NCBI GenBank assembly: GCA_040769985.1
Contig: JAXGJZ010000005.1
Location: 51,426-115,425 of the forward strand
Direction of reading: 5' to 3'
Origin: Desulfobacterales bacterium
GTDB taxonomy: Bacteria > Desulfobacterota > Desulfobacteria > Desulfobacterales > JAHDSC01
DNA length: 64,000 nt
Part shown: positions 14,814 through 52,389 of the stretch, one piece after another
Layout: each line of letters starts with the position of its first letter
How positions within the stretch are numbered: position 1 is the stretch's first letter
Translations under genes and position numbers: made by a program
Notes under the pieces: generated by a model
Told to the model about the DNA's origin: nothing
The model's database searches: none
What the model saw: only the letters and a program-made list of their open reading frames with translations

Positions 14814-16022
14814 TTTATTCAATTATATCGCTGACCACTCCCGCACCCACCGTGCGTCCACCTTCCCTGATCGCAAACCGGAGCTCTTTCTCCATCGCAA
14901 TCGGGGTGATCAACTCCGCCGAAATCGTTACGTTGTCGCCCGGCATGATCATCTCCACACCTTCCGGCAACTGCAACACCCCCGTTACATCCGTCGTCCG
15001 AAAATAAAACTGCGGCCGGTAACCATTGAAAAACGGCGTGTGACGACCCCCTTCCTCCTTGCTCAATATGTAAACCTCCGCCTTGAACTTCGTGTGGGGG
15101 GTGATCGACCCGGGAACCGCTACCACCTGCCCTCGCTCAACTTCCTCACGCTTCGTTCCCCGTAGCAAAATCCCAATGTTGTCTCCCGCTCGACCCTCGT
15201 CCAGCAACTTCCGGAACATCTCCACACCCGTACACACCGTCTTGGCCGTCGGTCGAATCCCGATAATCTCTACCTCGTCGCCAACCTTGATCACTCCACG
15301 CTCGACTCGACCCGTTACCACCGTCCCCCGTCCCGATATGCTGAATACATCCTCTATCGGCATCAAAAACGGCTTGTCTATGTCCCGCTCCGGCTCCGGA
15401 ATAAAAGAGTCAATCGCGTCCATCAACTCAAAAATACACTTGGCTTCCGCACTCCCCGGATCGTCGCTCTCCAACGCCTTTAAGGCACTGCCCCGAACAA
15501 TCGGCGTGTCGTCGCCCGGAAACCCATACTTGTCCAGTAACTCCCGAAGCTCCAACTCCACCAACTCCACCAACTCCTCGTCATCCACCATGTCGCACTT
15601 GTTTAAAAATACCACAATCCGAGGAACCCCAACCTGACGCGCAAGCAATATGTGCTCACGGGTCTGCGGCATCGGTCCGTCATCGGCACCTACCACCAGT
15701 ATCGCTCCATCCATCTGCGCCGCTCCCGTAATCATGTTCTTAATGTAATCCGCATGACCCGGACAGTCTACATGCGCATAGTGACGCTTGCTCGTCTCAT
15801 ACTCAACATGCGCCGTCGCAATCGTTATCCCACGCGCCTTCTCCTCCGGCGCCTTGTCTATCTGATCAAACGGAACAAAATGCGCCAAACCCTTCAACCC
15901 TAAATGCTTGGTGATCGCTGCCGTTAACGTCGTCTTCCCATGATCGATATGCCCGATCGTACCTACATTTACATGCGGCTTCTTCCGCTCAAATTTCTCC
16001 TTCGCCATCTCGTCGCCCTCCT
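14814..16022 (-). repeat. tuf duplication, copy 1 of a ~1209-bp direct repeat that appears identical
   Basis: The boundary bases were aligned by hand and identity breaks at 14813/29839 and 16023/31049. Identical ORF translations in several frames on both strands imply nucleotide identity across the block. Confidence 0.9.
14815..16008 (-). CDS. tuf: Elongation factor Tu, copy 1 (str-operon copy)
   Basis: 397 aa from [33 protein letters not shown] lies 8 nt upstream of the ATG at 16008. The 6-aa upstream extension in the ORF track (to 16026) lies outside the duplicated block and is not in copy 2. Protein is identical to copy 2. Confidence 0.98.
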
Positions 16023-16083
16023 TCATCTGAAAGGTGTATCGCGCATTTCCAGAGCCCGCTCGATCCGATCCGTCTTATATATC

Positions 16084-16554
16084 CTACCATCGGAAGTGAG
16101 CAAATGCCTTGTTGGCCTCCGCCATCTTATGGGTATCTTCTTTTTTCTTGACGGAAGCTCCCCGATTGTTGGCGGCATCCAAGAATTCCCCTGCAAGCTT
16201 GCCGGCCATGCTTTTTTCCGACCGATTCTTCGCATAGCCGATTATCCATCGGATCGCCAAAGCCGTTCGCCGGGAAGGCCGTATCTCCGTCGGCACTTGA
16301 TATGTCGAACCGCCGACTCGCCGCGATTTCACTTCGATCACCGGTCTCACATTGTCAACCGCGTTTTCAAAAATCTTCAGCGGTGATTCTTTTGTTTTTT
16401 CATCAATGATATCAAACGAATCATACAGTATCGATTCCGCCGTGCTCTTTTTTCCGTCACGCATGATCGCATTTATAAATTTTGACACCAACCTGCTGTT
16501 ATGCTTCGAATCCGGTATGATTCTTCGCTCAGGGACTTCTCTTCTTCTTGGCAT
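16084..16554 (-). CDS. rpsG: 30S ribosomal protein S7 (uS7)
   Basis: 156 aa. [17 protein letters not shown] ... AFAHFRW. Confidence 0.98.
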
Positions 16555-17301: not shown

Positions 17302-20300
17302 TCAGCCGGTTTTCACGTCCACTTCGCTGTAGGCAGGGTTGCCGGTTCCTGCTGGTATAATCCTGCCCATGATAACGTTTTCTTTAAGTCCACGCAGATG
17401 ATCAACGGCACCGGAAATACTGGCATCGGTCAACACCTTGGTGGTCTCCTGGAACGACGCGGCGGAAATAAAACTATCGGTGCTCAGCGACGCCTTGGTA
17501 ATACCCAGGATAAGAGGTTCGGCGACAGCCGGTTTTCCGCCTTTTTCAATCACTTCTTTATTAGCTTCCTCAAATTGTGTTCTGTTTACCTGCTCTTCAG
17601 CTATAAACTCCGTATCACCGGCATCGAGGACCTTAACCCGCTTCATCATCTGGCGGACAATCACCTCGATGTGCTTGTCATTTATCCGAACGCCCTGCAA
17701 TCGATAGACTTCCTGAACCTCATCAACCAGGTACCTGGCCAATGCGACTTCCCCTTTGATATTCAAAATGTCCTGAGGATTCGCCGAGCCGCTGATCAGA
17801 GGTTCGCCGGCCCGCACATAGTCCCCTTCATATACATTAATATGCTTGCCGCGAGGAATCAGATATTCTTTTTTTTCGCCCACATCAACGGGTGTCACCG
17901 TTACCTTCTGCTTGCCTTTCTTGGTGCTTTTTGAAATCGAGGCATAACCGTTGATTTCACTCAACACGGTGGTCTCTTTCGGCTTGCGCACCTCAAAAAG
18001 TTCCGCAACCCTGGGAAGCCCTCCGGTGATATCCTTGGTCTTGGTTGTCGCCCTAGGCAACTTTGCAATCACATCTCCGGCTTTCACCTCACCGCCTTCC
18101 TCAACGAGTAAAATCGCATCCACGGGAAGCATGTATCGCGCAACTCCGGAAGACGAAGGCAGTTGAAGAGTTTTACCTTCCTTGTCCTTTATGGATATCC
18201 GGGGACGTACCTCGGAGCTTCTGGATTCGATAATCATGCGGCTGGACTTCCCCGTGACCGGATCCACCTTTTCCTGCATCGTTTTTCCGATCTCTATGTC
18301 GCCGAACTTCACAATTCCGTTGACCCCTGTAATAATCGGAGTCGTAAAGGGGTCCCAGGTTGCCAGGAGATCGCCGGCCTTAACCTCCTGTCCGTCCTTC
18401 ACCATAATATGGGCGCCGTAAATAACCGGAAACCGCTCCCGTTCCCGTCCGGTTTCACCGACGATGCTGAATTCACCGCCCCGTCGATTCATTACCACCA
18501 GCTTCTTTTCCGCGTTTTCAACCACATTGAGTTCACCAAACTTGATCGTACCGTCGACTCTGGCTCGTATGTCCGCCTGCTCGACCCGACGGCTGGCGGT
18601 TCCACCGATGTGAAATGTGCGCATGGTCAGCTGGGTTCCCGGTTCACCGATTGATTGAGCCGCCAGAATGCCGACCGCCTGCCCGATTTCAATGGGCCGC
18701 CCGTGGGAAAGGTCCCGCCCGTAACACTTTATACAAACGCCGTGCTTGGTATTGCAGGTCAGAACCGATCGGATTTTAAGACTCGCGATTCCTGCGTCTT
18801 CGATTCGTATGACCGCTTCTTCATCAATCTCATCCCCTGCCTTAACGATCACTTCATCGGTAAACGGATCAAGAATATCCTCAATGGCGAAACGCCCCAG
18901 GATTCGTTCTCCCAGACGCTGGATGACTTCACCGCCTTCAACCAAAGCCTCGACTTCCACTCCCATCATGGTACCGCAATCCTCCTGCATGACCGCGCAG
19001 TCCTGGGCGACATCGGCGAGCCGACGCGTGAGATACCCCGAATTTGCCGTTTTCAGCGCGGTGTCGGCAAGACCTTTTCTGGCCCCGTGAGTGGAAATAA
19101 AATATTGAAGTACGGAAAGCCCTTCCCTGAAATTTGCGGTAATCGGTGTTTCAATTATTTCGCCGGATGGTTTTGCCATCAATCCACGCATCCCCGCCAG
19201 CTGACGCATCTGATCCTTGCTGCCTCTTGCCCCGGAATCCGCCATCATGTAAATGGGATTAAAACTTTCATGGGTAATCGTTTTGCCTGCTTCATCCAGT
19301 ACCGGATTGCCGTCCTTGTCGGTCAGCGCAACCATTTTCATGGATTTCATCATCTCGTTTGCCACATCGTCGGTTGCCTTTGCCCATATGTCCACAACTT
19401 TATTGTATTTTTCTCCTTGAGTGATAAGCCCTTCCGTATACTGCCGTCCGATTTCAATCACCTGCTTTTCCGCCGATTCGAGAATATCTTTTTTTGCGGA
19501 AGGAATGATCATGGCATCAATCGAAATGGAGAGCCCGCCTTCGGTCGCACACCGATACCCGAGATCTTTCAAACGGTCGGAAAGGATAACCGTTGCCTTC
19601 GGCCCAAGATTTCGATAGGCGTAATCCACCAGATCCCGCATGGCTTTTTTATCCATCACACGATTGACGGCATCAAAAGGAATCTCCGGCCGCCTGCTCA
19701 CCACTTCAAAAAGGTGATAGGCTTCATCCGCGCAAACGATATCGCTGATCTCTCCCTGTTCAAGGGCAAAAACGGCCTCAACCACCTCTTCATTGACCGG
19801 AAATATCCGCTGAAACTCGTCTTTCCGCAACAGCCCGATGCCCCCCTTATCTTCTCGATCGGGACTTTTTGAATATTGCTTCACCATGTCCGTAAAAACG
19901 GCACCGCCCCGGATCCGATCAAGAACGGATATAGCCTCATCCTCGGTATCAACCATGATATGGCGCATACTCAAAACGCTTGCCTTGGGTATAATTTCCC
20001 ATAACAGGGTTCGCCCGACCGTGGTATCGACCCGCTTTCCATCCATGCGAACGACAATTTTGGCATGAAGATCAACCGCGCCGGCATCGTAAGCGGATCG
20101 GACCTCTCCGGGATTAGCGAATATCTTGTTTTCCCCCTTGGCGCCCTCGATGCTTCTTGTCATATAGTAAATTCCAAGTACGATGTCCTGGGTCGGAACA
20201 ATAATCGGACTCCCGTTCGCCGGGGAAAGAATATTGTTGCTTGACAACATCAGCACCCGGGCTTCTATCTGGGCCTCAACGGAAAGGGGAATATGAACCG

Positions 20301-21699
20301 CCATCTGATCGCCGTCAAAGTCGGCATTGAAAGCCGTGCAAACAAGCGGATGAAGCTGAATGGCCTTTCCTTCGATCAGGGTCGGCTCAAAGGCCTGAAT
20401 CCCGAGTCGATGAAGAGTCGGTGCACGGTTTAAAAGAACCGGATATTCCTTCACCACTTCATCCAGGGTATCCCAGACTTCCGGGACCTCTCGTTCCACA
20501 AGTTTTTTGGCGCTTTTAACGGTGGAAACAAGGCCTTTCTGTTCCAAGCGATAATAAACAAAGGGTTTAAACAGCTCCAGTGCCATCTTTTTAGGTAATC
20601 CGCACTGATGCAACCGGAGATTCGGACCTACCGTAATAACGGTTCGCCCTGAATAGTCGACCCGCTTGCCCAGCAGGTTCTGACGGAAACGGCCCTGCTT
20701 TCCTTTCAAGGTGTCACTCAAAGATTTCAACGGCCGTTTGTTTGATCCCGTAATCACCCGGCCGTGCCGTCCGTTGTCAAACAAAACATCGACCGATTCC
20801 TGAAGCATCCGCTTTTCGTTGCGAACGATAATTTCAGGCGCCTTGAGATCGATCAGCCGCTTTAAGCGATTATTGCGGTTAATAACCCTGCGATACAAGT
20901 CATTGAGATCAGAGGTGGCGAATCGACCTCCTTCGAGGGGAACGAGCGGTCGCAAATCCGGAGGAAGAACCGGAATCACATCCATGATCATCCATGCGGG
21001 ATCAATTCCGCTGCGCCTGAATGCATCGACGATTTTTAGTCGTTTGGCCAGTTTTTTACGTTTTGAGTCCGAACCGGATGAACGAATCTCTTCTCTCAAT
21101 TCCTTGTAGATTGCATCCAGGTCCAACTGTTTCAGCAATACCTTGACCGCCTCGGCACCGACCCCTGCTTCAAAGCCGGTTCCATAAGTTTCAACGGCCT
21201 CCCGATACTTTTCGTCCGATAAAAGCTGTCCGCGTGATAAGCCCGTATCCTTGGGATCCGTCACGATGTAACTGTCAAAGTAGAGAACCTTCTCCATATT
21301 CTTGAGCGTGATATCCAGAAGGTTTCCGATCTTGCTCGGAAGACTCTTCAAAAACCATATATGAGATACGGGTGTAGAAAGTTCAATATGCCCCATCCGT
21401 TCTCTTCTTACCTTGGATTGAATTACCTCCACTCCGCACTTTTCACAAATCACTCCCCTGTGCTTCATCCGCTTGTACTTACCGCAATTGCATTCGTAAT
21501 CCTTGGTAGGACCAAAAATCTTGGCACAAAACAGGCCGTCTCTCTCCGGCTTAAAGGTTCGGTAATTGATCGTTTCCGGCTTTTTTATCTCTCCGTGCGA
21601 CCATTGACGAATCTGATCCGATGACGCCAGTGCAATTTTAACCCCGGAATAAAGCCTGGGATCGGTTGGCTTGGCGAAGAAATCGTATAAGGTTTCCAT
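17302..21699 (-). CDS. rpoC: DNA-directed RNA polymerase subunit beta-prime, carrying an extra parvulin-like insertion
   Basis: 1465 aa. Zn-finger [28 protein letters not shown] at residues 458-469. Bridge helix/trigger loop with a proteobacterial SI3-like insert. See the separate feature for the insert at residues 573-671. Confidence 0.98.
19687..19983 (-). other. In-frame ~99-aa parvulin (PpiC-type PPIase)-like domain within rpoC (residues ~573-671)
   Basis: Segment [99 protein letters not shown]. It sits between ...LWEIIPK and [16 protein letters not shown], which are contiguous in E. coli beta-prime as I recall it. The motif order matches parvulins: xHIxV, GxxF..yS, GGxxG, F.l..Ge.S, yHl.ev..R. 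Confidence 0.7.
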
Positions 21700-29839: not shown

Positions 29840-31048
29840 TTTATTCAATTATATCGCTGACCACTCCCGCACCCACCGTGCGTCCACCTTCCCTGATCGC
29901 AAACCGGAGCTCTTTCTCCATCGCAATCGGGGTGATCAACTCCGCCGAAATCGTTACGTTGTCGCCCGGCATGATCATCTCCACACCTTCCGGCAACTGC
30001 AACACCCCCGTTACATCCGTCGTCCGAAAATAAAACTGCGGCCGGTAACCATTGAAAAACGGCGTGTGACGACCCCCTTCCTCCTTGCTCAATATGTAAA
30101 CCTCCGCCTTGAACTTCGTGTGGGGGGTGATCGACCCGGGAACCGCTACCACCTGCCCTCGCTCAACTTCCTCACGCTTCGTTCCCCGTAGCAAAATCCC
30201 AATGTTGTCTCCCGCTCGACCCTCGTCCAGCAACTTCCGGAACATCTCCACACCCGTACACACCGTCTTGGCCGTCGGTCGAATCCCGATAATCTCTACC
30301 TCGTCGCCAACCTTGATCACTCCACGCTCGACTCGACCCGTTACCACCGTCCCCCGTCCCGATATGCTGAATACATCCTCTATCGGCATCAAAAACGGCT
30401 TGTCTATGTCCCGCTCCGGCTCCGGAATAAAAGAGTCAATCGCGTCCATCAACTCAAAAATACACTTGGCTTCCGCACTCCCCGGATCGTCGCTCTCCAA
30501 CGCCTTTAAGGCACTGCCCCGAACAATCGGCGTGTCGTCGCCCGGAAACCCATACTTGTCCAGTAACTCCCGAAGCTCCAACTCCACCAACTCCACCAAC
30601 TCCTCGTCATCCACCATGTCGCACTTGTTTAAAAATACCACAATCCGAGGAACCCCAACCTGACGCGCAAGCAATATGTGCTCACGGGTCTGCGGCATCG
30701 GTCCGTCATCGGCACCTACCACCAGTATCGCTCCATCCATCTGCGCCGCTCCCGTAATCATGTTCTTAATGTAATCCGCATGACCCGGACAGTCTACATG
30801 CGCATAGTGACGCTTGCTCGTCTCATACTCAACATGCGCCGTCGCAATCGTTATCCCACGCGCCTTCTCCTCCGGCGCCTTGTCTATCTGATCAAACGGA
30901 ACAAAATGCGCCAAACCCTTCAACCCTAAATGCTTGGTGATCGCTGCCGTTAACGTCGTCTTCCCATGATCGATATGCCCGATCGTACCTACATTTACAT
31001 GCGGCTTCTTCCGCTCAAATTTCTCCTTCGCCATCTCGTCGCCCTCCT
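29840..31048 (-). repeat. tuf duplication, copy 2 of a ~1209-bp direct repeat that appears identical
   Basis: Offset of exactly 15026 nt from copy 1. Includes the stop codon plus 1 nt, and 14 nt of 5' UTR with the AGGAGG SD. Confidence 0.9.
29841..31034 (-). CDS. tuf: Elongation factor Tu, copy 2 (tRNA-tuf-secE-nusG copy)
   Basis: 397 aa, identical to copy 1. Preceded by the Thr-Tyr-Gly-Thr tRNA cluster, as in the E. coli tufB operon. Confidence 0.98.
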
Positions 31049-50832: not shown

Positions 50833-52389
50833 TCAAACAACTCGGCTTTGCGTTTCTTCGCAGGCGGAGGGAAGCGTGAAAAAAAATGTGCTTCCCTTCC
50901 CGACTTTGCTATTGACCCATACGTTCCCGTTATGGGCCTGAACAATTCGTTTTGTTATATTCAGCCCCAATCCAACCCCACTCATATGATCTCTCGCACC
51001 CGGCGATTGATAATACTTGTTGAATATCAGAGATTGTTCTTCCTTCGGGATACCCGGGCCGTTATCTGAAACCGAAAACCGCAGGTTTCCCGCGGCATCA
51101 TCCAAGCCTGAACACACGGTCACCTTACTGCCGGGAGGTGAAAACTTGATTGCGTTATCCAGCAGGTTTATAAAGACTCGCTGCAGGTACTCAGGATCCC
51201 CCATCAGATTGGGAAGGCCGGGACTTATCTGCACCTCGATATTGATATTTTTCACCTCTGCCGCGGGGTTGAGCTTATAAATACACTTGGAGACGAAAAG
51301 AGCGGTTTCGATGGATGTGGGCTTTATTTCCAGTGCACCGGATTCAAGGCGGGAGACCTGCATCAAATGATTCAGCAATTCACAAATCCGGCCGATTTCC
51401 ACGCTGGCAATCTCAAGAAACTTTCTTTGTCGCTGGTTAATGCCACCCATGATCTCTTCCGCAATCATATTCACCGATTCTCGGATAGAGGTCAAGGGCG
51501 TTCTTATTTCGTGGCTCAACATGGAAATAAAATCCGAGCGCATTCGCTCTTCTTCTTTCAAACGCACGGCCATCTCATTGAAAGCGCCCGCCAATTGCCC
51601 GAATTCATCTTTCGATCGCACGACAATAGGCTCGCTGTATCGCTCTTGGGAGATCGATTTGATTCCGGCGCTAAGCTCACGAAGCGGCCGGATCATCGAG
51701 TAAGCCAGAAAAATTATTCCAACCAGACCCACAAGGCTTGAAATTCCTAAACCGATTAAACCATTTTGAGCAGAGATTCGTCCCTGGCGATTCAGTTCAT
51801 GGATTGCGGATGTGATATCCTGCTCATTTTCGATCCGGGCCGCGGAAATCTCTTGAATCCATTTATTGATGACCGGCTCCGGAATCCACAGCAGCTCAGC
51901 CGGTTCATCCTCTTTCAAATTTCCTAATTTATCCGAAAAATTTTTATAATTTTCATAAAGCCGTTTCCACTGCGGGGAGACCGCCATTCCCATGGATTCC
52001 AGTTGAATGATCCCGATCAGATTAATTTCGAAGTCTTTTTGTGCCGAAAGAAAATAGTGGAGATAATCTTCTTTTTTCAACAAATGATATTTTTTGTCGT
52101 TTTCCTCCATATTAAGCAAGTTCTCGATCATCTTTTTGGAAATAGACGATATCTTGGTGTTTTTATTTACAATATCTTCGGATAATTTAACGATTTCCTG
52201 AAAATTGATGTAGAGGACCAGGATTGTTCCATAGAATATGAGCAGGGTTATAAAAAACCATACAAACAACTTGCTTGTTATTCCATATTTTGGTTTCACA
52301 CTTGGACCCTTCTTAATAATGCCGGAGCACGGTAAAGGACAAGGCCCCCGGCTACGAAAACCGACAACCCACTTCTTGAAAAAAACCAT
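50833..52389 (-). CDS. Sensor histidine kinase (TM-sensor-HAMP-HisKA-HATPase_c)
   Basis: H-box FISMLSHEIRTPLTSI. N/G boxes LDNAIKFSP, SDNGPGIP, GVGLGL. The true start may be GTG at 52299. Confidence 0.92.
   Translation of the reverse strand: MVFFKKWVVGFRSRGPCPLPCSGIIKKGPSVKPKYGITSKLFVWFFITLLIFYGTILVLYINFQEIVKLSEDIVNKNTKISSISKKMIENLLNMEENDKKYHLLKKEDYLHYFLSAQKDFEINLIGIIQLESMGMAVSPQWKRLYENYKNFSDKLGNLKEDEPAELLWIPEPVINKWIQEISAARIENEQDITSAIHELNRQGRISAQNGLIGLGISSLVGLVGIIFLAYSMIRPLRELSAGIKSISQERYSEPIVVRSKDEFGQLAGAFNEMAVRLKEEERMRSDFISMLSHEIRTPLTSIRESVNMIAEEIMGGINQRQRKFLEIASVEIGRICELLNHLMQVSRLESGALEIKPTSIETALFVSKCIYKLNPAAEVKNINIEVQISPGLPNLMGDPEYLQRVFINLLDNAIKFSPPGSKVTVCSGLDDAAGNLRFSVSDNGPGIPKEEQSLIFNKYYQSPGARDHMSGVGLGLNITKRIVQAHNGNVWVNSKVGKGSTFFFTLPSACEETQSRVV

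Follow-up and report, generated by a model that had tools for sequence, protein, structure and literature searches.

An insert in the β' subunit of RNA polymerase

The 64,000-nucleotide stretch analyzed here (the window; positions 51,426 to 115,425 of contig JAXGJZ010000005.1, assembly GCA_040769985.1, Desulfobacterales bacterium) carries rpoC, the gene of the RNA polymerase (RNAP) β' subunit, in the native and canonical order nusG-rplK-rplA-rplJ-rplL-rpoB-rpoC-rpsL-rpsG-tuf. Its 1,465-residue product scores 1760.9 bits against the NCBIfam rpoC model TIGR02386 and contains a 99-residue domain of the parvulin (PpiC/Rotamase) fold, inserted in frame into the β' chain. An initial annotation of the window had proposed such an insert, of peptidyl-prolyl isomerase (PPIase)-like character. 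Translation of positions 19687-19983 gives exactly the 99 residues quoted there, with the correction that they are encoded on the minus strand; the NADFDGD motif starts at residue 458, and H580 and H662 stand where they had been placed.

Comparison of residues 434-800 with all solved structures matches 78 distinct β' sequences, each in two pieces. Homology to β' breaks at K572 and restarts at I673, positions that correspond to residues 586 and 588 of the Xanthomonas and Pseudomonas β' and to residues ~585-587 of the E. coli β', in line with the earlier proposal that the two flanks are contiguous in E. coli. Because the flanks align to adjacent target residues in the 78 solved β', the alignments identify the ~99-residue segment as a pure in-frame insertion rather than a divergent stretch. 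None of the solved β' structures (78 distinct sequences compared) contains the insert.

Parvulin identity and fold of the insert

Taken alone, the insert scores 40.7 bits against Pfam PF00639 (Rotamase; gathering cut-off 21.7, E=4.9e-10) and 32.8 bits against PF13616 (cut-off 22.5), in agreement with the rotamase assignment of the initial annotation; within the full-length protein, the PF00639 score is 34.4 bits. The nearest solved relatives by sequence are the parvulin domains of PrsA foldases, followed by archaeal parvulin, SurA, Par10, Par14, and Pin1, and a profile of the insert family matches PrsA/SurA/PpiD-type parvulins with E down to 4e-12.

An AlphaFold (AF2) model of the insert, built from a seven-sequence alignment, reaches a predicted local distance difference test (pLDDT) score of 87-96 throughout. 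Its elements follow the order E-H-H-H-E-(H)-H-E-E, that is, a strand, three helices, a strand, a short extra helix, a further helix, and two strands, in agreement with the β-α3-β-α-β2 order of the parvulin fold, which has a four-stranded antiparallel sheet. Searching this model against the PDB with Foldseek returns parvulins as all top matches (PrsA, SurA, Par14, PpiD, Pin1, and Ess1), with a probability of 1.00 and a template modeling (TM) score of up to 0.85 on the target, so that the fold first read from sequence motifs is borne out by structure prediction. Strand 1 of the model begins two residues past K572, and a single residue separates the end of the last strand from the C-terminal seam. 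With strands that begin and end within 1-2 residues of the seam, the insert is predicted to be plugged into the loop with essentially no linkers and to be rigidly attached. The N and C termini of a parvulin domain are adjacent, hence the ability of PrsA and SurA to carry embedded parvulin domains.

Family hidden Markov models, the fold, and the dual histidines all place the insert among parvulin/PpiC domains, and the canonical catalytic tetrad is what it lacks. Since Ser612 and Ala657 replace tetrad residues and are not conserved in the family, the domain is rightly called "PPIase-like" rather than "PPIase".

Insertion site on the polymerase

Within the Pfam domain RNA_pol_Rpb1_3, the insert interrupts the match at profile position 81/162, with residues 489-573 matching profile positions 1-81. 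In the domain table of Alvarez-Carreño et al. (2024; PMC11515920), the bacterial-specific domain β'-bD4 is nested in the universal domain β'-uD3, and uD3 resumes at residue 572 of proteobacterial β' in E. coli-like numbering; on this map, the seam coincides with the bD4/uD3 boundary. Archaea carry a different insert, aD2, inside uD3 (PMC11515920). Cyanobacterial models bracket the insert from both sides, those of rpoC1/γ matching the protein up to residue ~560 and those of rpoC2 from ~677 (677/678). In a cyanobacterial RNAP structure paper, the rpoC1/rpoC2 junction lies "before conserved region E", and the rim helix, bridge helix, and trigger loop all follow it downstream.

As the cyanobacterial split brackets the seam, and as archaea and bacteria have uD3 inserts of their own, this point between the catalytic barrel and the secondary-channel rim helices is demonstrably permissive. 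By offset from E. coli numbering, the rim helices should begin ~60 residues past the insert, which probably protrudes from the outer surface of the enzyme on its secondary-channel side.

The β-hairpin that precedes the seam is ~13 residues shorter than its counterpart in the Xanthomonas, Pseudomonas, and E. coli β'. It follows that bD4 has been trimmed in the insert-bearing lineage, right beside the added parvulin.

Distribution, age, and selection

The identical 1,465-residue protein recurs on at least 10 contigs, which come from six samples: two JGI metagenomes, three Logan/SRA runs, and the NCBI metagenome-assembled genome (MAG) GCA_035387425.1, the record of which is named "Desulfobacterales bacterium"; four data sources (JGI, Logan, DRR, and NCBI) are represented. 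An exhaustive HMMER search of 1.84 billion cluster representatives recovers RpoC fragments of other organisms with a homologous insert at the same junction, the inserts being 44-51% identical and the flanks nearly invariant.

A hand-designed degenerate DNA pattern for the insert, which matches the window once against 0 matches expected by chance, was scanned over 185,579 species-representative genomes and, strict as it is, gives at least 120 matches. In these species genomes, nearly all labeled as Desulfobacterales families, the insert occupies the same seam of rpoC, and its reading frame is maintained without stops (117 species examined), which answers the question raised by the initial annotation as to which RpoC orthologs share the segment. 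Among the matches listed, record titles include Desulfobacterales, Desulfobacteraceae, Desulfococcaceae, Desulfosarcina, Desulfatitalea, Desulfatibacillum, Desulfonema limicola, Desulfosalsimonadaceae, Desulfatirhabdiaceae, and the Olavius Delta-3 symbiont; Desulfobacter, Desulfobacula, and Desulfobacterium are not among the matches listed. The insert is a trait of the entire order, Desulfobacterales, rather than a peculiarity of one genome. A second lineage suggested by the label "Nitrospinaceae" (L025, CAXMTB010000006.1) was rejected: its rpoC segment shares 93% identity with the one in a Desulfobacteraceae MAG (L093), and the label is probably a binning or naming error.

The ratio of non-synonymous to synonymous substitution rates (dN/dS) was estimated by the Nei-Gojobori method on 111 gap-free species, with 143 codons as the flanks. 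Median dN/dS lies at 0.19-0.37 in the insert and at 0.09-0.17 in the flanking core, so the insert is under purifying selection about half as stringent as that on the adjacent core. The non-synonymous distances of insert and core are correlated (Spearman 0.59). GC content at third codon positions (GC3) is 0.556 in the insert and 0.557 in the rest of rpoC, and overall GC likewise equals that of the host gene. The insert borders show no junction repeats. A search for a close free-standing donor found none, the best free-standing parvulins being ~38% identical or less and belonging to unrelated phyla. The shared seam, the correlated divergence of insert and core, the matched GC3, the absence of repeats, and the lack of a close donor together point to one ancient acquisition in the Desulfobacterales ancestor, followed by vertical inheritance under continuing purifying selection. 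Among the at least 120 genomes, the insert thus behaves as a lineage-specific insertion, lying in frame between contiguous blocks and being inherited vertically within one lineage.

Active site and conserved features

HMMER alignments to PrsA and our own gap-free Par10 register place the parvulin tetrad (His, Cys/Asp, Thr/Ser, and His) at insert positions 8, 40, 85, and 90, which in this genome are H580, S612, A657, and H662 (Table 1). The counterparts of the second and third positions in other parvulins are C113 and T152 of Pin1, D74 of Par14, and the Asp of PrsA "YSxD", with C113, D74, and the PrsA Asp at the Cys/Asp position and T152 at the Thr/Ser position. The initial annotation held that both active-site histidines are retained, and here they are; the Cys/Asp and Thr positions, in contrast, are occupied by Ser612 and Ala657, which the family does not conserve. 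Across 117 species, position 8 is predominantly His (H 100, R 11, Q 6), position 40 varies without ever being Cys (S 49, A 33, G 16, H 9, D 7), and position 85 is most often Ala (A 57, S 25, F 9, I 9, T 6). His at position 90 occurs in every pattern-independent fragment that reaches it and is fixed by the search pattern in the 117-species set. The complete tetrad is intact in a single species of the 117.

Two residues past the canonical catalytic position, Asp42 is present in 104 of 117 species, and an acid lies somewhere within positions 40-42 in 110. Asp40 and Asp42 are anticorrelated, members with Asp40 mostly being without Asp42 (counts 2, 5, 102, and 8; Fisher p=1.4e-4, a value that is not phylogeny-corrected and includes several Asp40 cases from close relatives). 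Positions 40-42 thus read [C/D]-x-S in canonical parvulins and [S/A/G]-x-D in the RpoC-insert family. Given this exchange and the acid kept in 110 of 117 species, the catalytic acid may have moved by two residues rather than been lost.

The hydrophobic pocket is kept, with I/L at position 49, L/F at 52, F at 57, and F/Y at 61 (I621, L624, F629, and F633 here). An extra helix, at residues 64-70 of the AF2 model, coincides with a five-residue insertion relative to PrsA in the HMMER alignment; the E and F of its "DEF" motif are invariant in 10 fragments obtained independently of the DNA pattern. Fold-defining residues outside the pattern are strongly conserved (G27 98%, F30 94%, S38 94%, L74 92%, and A17 90%), as are the non-core residues D42 (90%) and R7 (86%). 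The mean net charge of the insert is -7.1 versus +0.9 for the flanks, and its β1-α1 loop is short and acidic ("VDTEDEA").

Insert length also varies. Two loci encode 125 residues, one of them labeled Desulfatirhabdiaceae, with a charged +26-residue extension in the α1-α2 region; variants of 107 residues (+8) and 96 residues occur in one genome each, and in the 96-residue (-3) variant, the catalytic loop is shortened. Further accretion occurs in the loop that joins helices 1 and 2.

Table 1. Coordinates of rpoC, of the insert with its motifs, and of other features of the window; length variants are given in coordinates of their own loci
Feature	Position	Strand	Basis or remark
rpoC (RNAP β' subunit), insert host	17302-21699	minus	1465-aa open reading frame; NCBIfam TIGR02386; Pfam Rpb1 domains 1-5
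N-terminal flank, first half of Pfam RNA_pol_Rpb1_3 (pore 1) including β'-bD4, to K572	19984-20235	minus	Pfam; alignment to solved β'; domain table of PMC11515920
β-hairpin before the seam, RpoC ~534-572	19984-20100	minus
Parvulin (PpiC/Rotamase)-fold insert, residues 573-671, 99 aa	19687-19983	minus	Pfam PF00639; PrsA matches; AF2; Foldseek
His580, insert position 8, first His of the dual-histidine motif	19960-19962	minus	Aligned to His of PrsA "SHILV"
Ser612, insert position 40, at the catalytic Cys/Asp position	19864-19866	minus	Aligned to Asp of PrsA "YSxD"
Asp614, insert position 42, conserved acid, possible displaced catalytic acid	19858-19860	minus
Asp627-Glu628-Phe629, "DEF" motif, extra short helix between strand 2 and helix 4, substrate-pocket region	19813-19821	minus
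Ala657, insert position 85, at the Pin1 Thr152 position of the catalytic hydrogen-bond network	19729-19731	minus	Own alignment to PrsA/Par10 T-x-x-G-Y-H
His662, insert position 90, second His of the dual-histidine motif	19714-19716	minus	Aligned to His of PrsA "GYHII"
C-terminal seam E672-I673, restart of β' homology (EIPFDAVN, conserved region E side)	19681-19686	minus	HMMER second stretch from query 240 = I673
Weak Pfam matches, RpoC ~1096-1306	~17780-18415	minus
rpsG	16084-16554	minus
tuf, first copy	14815-16026	minus
tuf, second copy	29841-31034	minus
Length variant, 125 aa	L115:375-809	plus
Length variant, 125 aa	L124:1732-2166	plus
Length variant	L027:3824-4204	minus	One of this and the next is 107 aa, the other 96 aa
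Length variant	L008:579-926	minus	See preceding row

Comparison with known systems

The insert shares with the parvulin domains of PrsA, SurA, and PpiD the strand-helix order and the embedding in a host protein through adjacent N and C termini, and with SurA P1 and PpiD also the degenerate catalytic residues. Its host, however, is the catalytic subunit of a cytoplasmic RNAP rather than a periplasmic or extracytoplasmic chaperone scaffold, and it differs in having S-x-D instead of D/C-x-S, an extra short helix with an invariant "EF" by the pocket, and a strongly acidic charge. E. coli Par10 (PpiC), matched at E=6.8e-5, is similarly a single parvulin of ~92-99 residues with a short β1-α1 loop and no phosphate-binding loop; Par10 is free-standing with a catalytic Cys, whereas the insert is covalently embedded in β' and has Ser, Ala, or Gly at that position.

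Pin1 and Ess1 offer an analogy, not a membership, in that a parvulin fold is physically tied to the largest RNAP subunit (the Rpb1 homolog). The insert has no WW domain by Pfam, its β1-α1 loop is short and acidic rather than basic and phosphate-binding, and the catalytic Cys is absent in all 117 species. Bacteria, moreover, are without the C-terminal domain (CTD), and the insert is joined to the polymerase by fusion, Pin1 and Ess1 by binding. With its short acidic loop, the insert is not a Pin1-type phospho-specific parvulin.

Among lineage-specific β' inserts, those known as β'i2 (Thermus) and β'i6/SI3 (E. coli and cyanobacteria) are likewise in frame, clade-restricted, vertically inherited, and situated in a surface loop between conserved blocks. 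The fold sets the Desulfobacterales insert apart, being a parvulin rather than HABAS/SBHM, BEAN/BBM2, or sLC, as does the site: it lies at the C-terminal edge of bD4, and the nearest of the seven catalogued sites is "the middle of bD4" (PMC11515920). The rpoC1 (γ/β'1)-rpoC2 (β'2) split of cyanobacteria and chloroplasts uses the same polypeptide seam, but there the chain is broken, whereas in Desulfobacterales it continues with an extra folded domain.

The 2024 catalogue of β' insertions contains HABAS, BEAN, and sLC modules only, at seven sites, and neither a PPIase, parvulin, or rotamase term nor a "Desulfo" entry occurs in its text or supplements (PMC11515920); the insert is therefore not one described in that catalogue. 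A full-text search of about 8 million papers and preprints, which did not extend to the Lane & Darst 2010 catalogue, found none that describes a parvulin or rotamase domain within RpoC. Automatic Pfam annotation already lists PF00639 on this protein. The novelty suggested by the initial annotation thus stands with respect to the literature found and not to the databases, where the Rotamase domain is flagged though undescribed.

As a lineage-specific β' insertion, the insert has a fold without precedent, one that belongs to a family of enzymes and chaperones. To our knowledge, the lineage-specific inserts of bacterial RNAP characterized so far all come from a few non-enzymatic β-rich modules (SBHM/HABAS, BBM2/BEAN, and sLC). 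The fixation of an enzyme/chaperone-family domain in the catalytic subunit of a whole order of environmentally dominant sulfate reducers represents a different kind of accretion, and one that provides a clean molecular synapomorphy of the clade. With an archaeal insert, a bacterial insert, the cyanobacterial split, and now a parvulin, the bD4/uD3 seam emerges as a general hotspot of β' remodeling.

Proposed role and alternatives

The identity of the insert, its distribution, and the selection acting on it are close to certain. As to its role, we tentatively favor an RNAP-tethered module that would bind proline or peptide segments with weak or altered catalysis. The hydrophobic pocket (I621, L624, F629, and F633), the dual histidines, and the acid at positions 40-42 would bind a partner protein, for instance a transcription factor or an adjacent RNAP element, by a segment that is hydrophobic or contains Xaa-Pro. 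With a mean net charge of -7, the strongly acidic surface of the insert speaks for a protein as the ligand and not for a nucleic acid. Of the tetrad, Cys/Asp and Thr are replaced and differ from species to species, so that isomerase catalysis would be weak or altered instead of canonical. Circumstantial evidence for a connection between parvulins and transcription comes from E. coli, where NusG, Rho, SuhB, and RpoA co-purify with PpiC, a free parvulin, and where RpoB and RpoC are among the proteins that aggregate in cells that lack all six cytoplasmic PPIases (PMC7353009). The whole account, an ancient parvulin insertion that is under selection and acts as a tethered recognition module, has in our judgment an even chance of being correct.

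Several points weigh against this account. Domain maps and the cyanobacterial split, rather than a whole-enzyme model, underlie the placement on the surface, and an AlphaFold model of the insert in context (residues 489-760) reaches a pLDDT of 46 and says nothing on packing against the core. The scan used a strict pattern and lists at least 120 matches, a lower bound on the extent of the insert-bearing clade. G47, G50, E56, F57, H90, and F92 are fixed by the pattern, so that their invariance in the 117 species is not independent evidence. Finally, the conservation of Asp42 and its anticorrelation with Asp40 would favor real catalysis over mere binding.

This last point belongs to the alternative of a fully active prolyl isomerase within RNAP, in which Asp614 would serve as the catalytic acid and a cis/trans switch of Xaa-Pro bonds would act on transcription factors or on RNAP itself. 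By analogy, it would be a built-in conformational switch, functionally similar to Ess1/Pin1 acting on the CTD of RNA polymerase II (Pol II). Such activity agrees with the presence of both histidines in this genome, the conserved pocket hydrophobics, the acid at positions 40-42 in 110 of 117 species with Asp40 and Asp42 largely mutually exclusive, the purifying selection on the insert, and best matches, in sequence and structure alike, to active PrsA-type parvulins; the clients of E. coli PpiC are also transcription-related (PMC7353009). The canonical tetrad, however, is intact in only 1 of 117 species, Ala prevails at the Thr152-equivalent position, 17 of 117 species have Arg or Gln in place of the first His, the pocket loop contains a family-specific insertion of 5-6 residues, and the Asp40/Asp42 statistic is without phylogenetic correction. 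Parvulin domains with similarly degenerate sites (SurA P1 and PpiD) are inactive, which further counts against activity, and we consider an active isomerase doubtful. Its more specific form, in which the relocated Asp (S-x-D for D-x-S) keeps the embedded parvulin active and a proline is isomerized in a Gre/DksA-type factor, NusG, Rho, a sigma factor, or β' itself beside the secondary-channel rim, seems to us unlikely. Were the embedded isomerase active, prolyl isomerization would time or switch bacterial transcription from within the polymerase, as a bacterial counterpart, in fused form, of the control of Pol II by Ess1/Pin1.

The insert might instead assist in cis the folding or assembly of the large β' chain or its subunit junctions, with no role in the transcription cycle. 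The aggregation of RpoB and RpoC in E. coli without cytoplasmic PPIases and the co-purification of β and β' with PpiB (PMC7353009) fit a folding aid, as do the foldase and chaperone functions of its closest relatives, PrsA and SurA, and the position of the seam between two halves that fold separately in cyanobacteria. Yet nothing marks the RNAP of Desulfobacterales as harder to fold, a rigid, linker-less attachment restricts reach along the chain, and a conserved acidic surface is untypical of chaperones, which makes this explanation improbable. A tolerated passenger is also conceivable: having landed in a permissive surface loop, from which clean removal is unlikely, the domain would be kept folded by selection that merely protects an essential enzyme. 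The permissive seam (cyanobacterial chain break; archaeal and bacterial uD3 inserts), an evolutionary rate about twice that of the flanks, the drift of catalytic residues, and the tolerance of length changes of -3, +8, and +26 residues are all compatible with a passenger. Several of the lineage-specific RNAP inserts of E. coli are dispensable in vitro, which counts in the same direction. Against this stand an insert that is in frame without stops in 117 of 117 species, over a divergence that saturates synonymous sites, and the conservation of features outside the fold core (D42 90%, R7 86%, the DEF motif, and the net acidic charge); we regard a mere passenger as about as improbable as the folding aid.

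An assembly chimera, an intein, or a recently transferred cassette can be given next to no weight. Word-indexed protein searches returned 1-4 short fragments, at first a single one of 130 residues, which resembled extreme rarity; the apparent rarity is an index limit, the full-length protein and its cluster representative being absent from the word-indexed results though present in the collection. The artifact that the initial annotation had allowed for is contradicted by the same protein in JGI, Logan, DRR, and NCBI assemblies, on at least 10 contigs from six samples, and by homologous inserts in at least 120 species genomes. GC and GC3 equal those of the host gene, and divergence tracks that of the core gene, which also argues against mobility. 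An intein or other mobile insertion was rejected, as there is no Hint or intein match in Pfam, the +1 residue is Glu672 rather than Cys, Ser, or Thr, no repeats flank the insert, and GC3 is matched.

The insert represents a natural "Rosetta-stone" fusion of parvulins to transcription, for which bacterial support until now has consisted only of pull-downs with free PpiC. Being deletable and mutable in recombinant RNAP, the insert offers a tractable handle on prolyl isomerization or proline recognition in bacterial transcription.

Other features of the locus

A tblastn search found no second parvulin gene in the window. Farther along RpoC, at residues ~1096-1306, weak Pfam matches to Biotin_lipoyl_2, Peptidase_M23, RPOC_hybrid, Apocytochr_F_C, and RnfC_N are the expected signature of the barrel-sandwich-hybrid (HABAS/SBHM) modules of β' and are ordinary.

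Two tuf genes, ~15 kb apart and encoding EF-Tu proteins that are 100% identical, bracket the nusG-rpl-rpoBC-rpsLG block. The gene rpsG is separated from tuf by ~57 nt, without fusA in between, whereas the usual str operon has the order rpsL-rpsG-fusA-tuf. This arrangement of tuf could reflect either a real rearrangement or a collapse of the metagenome assembly at the tuf repeat.

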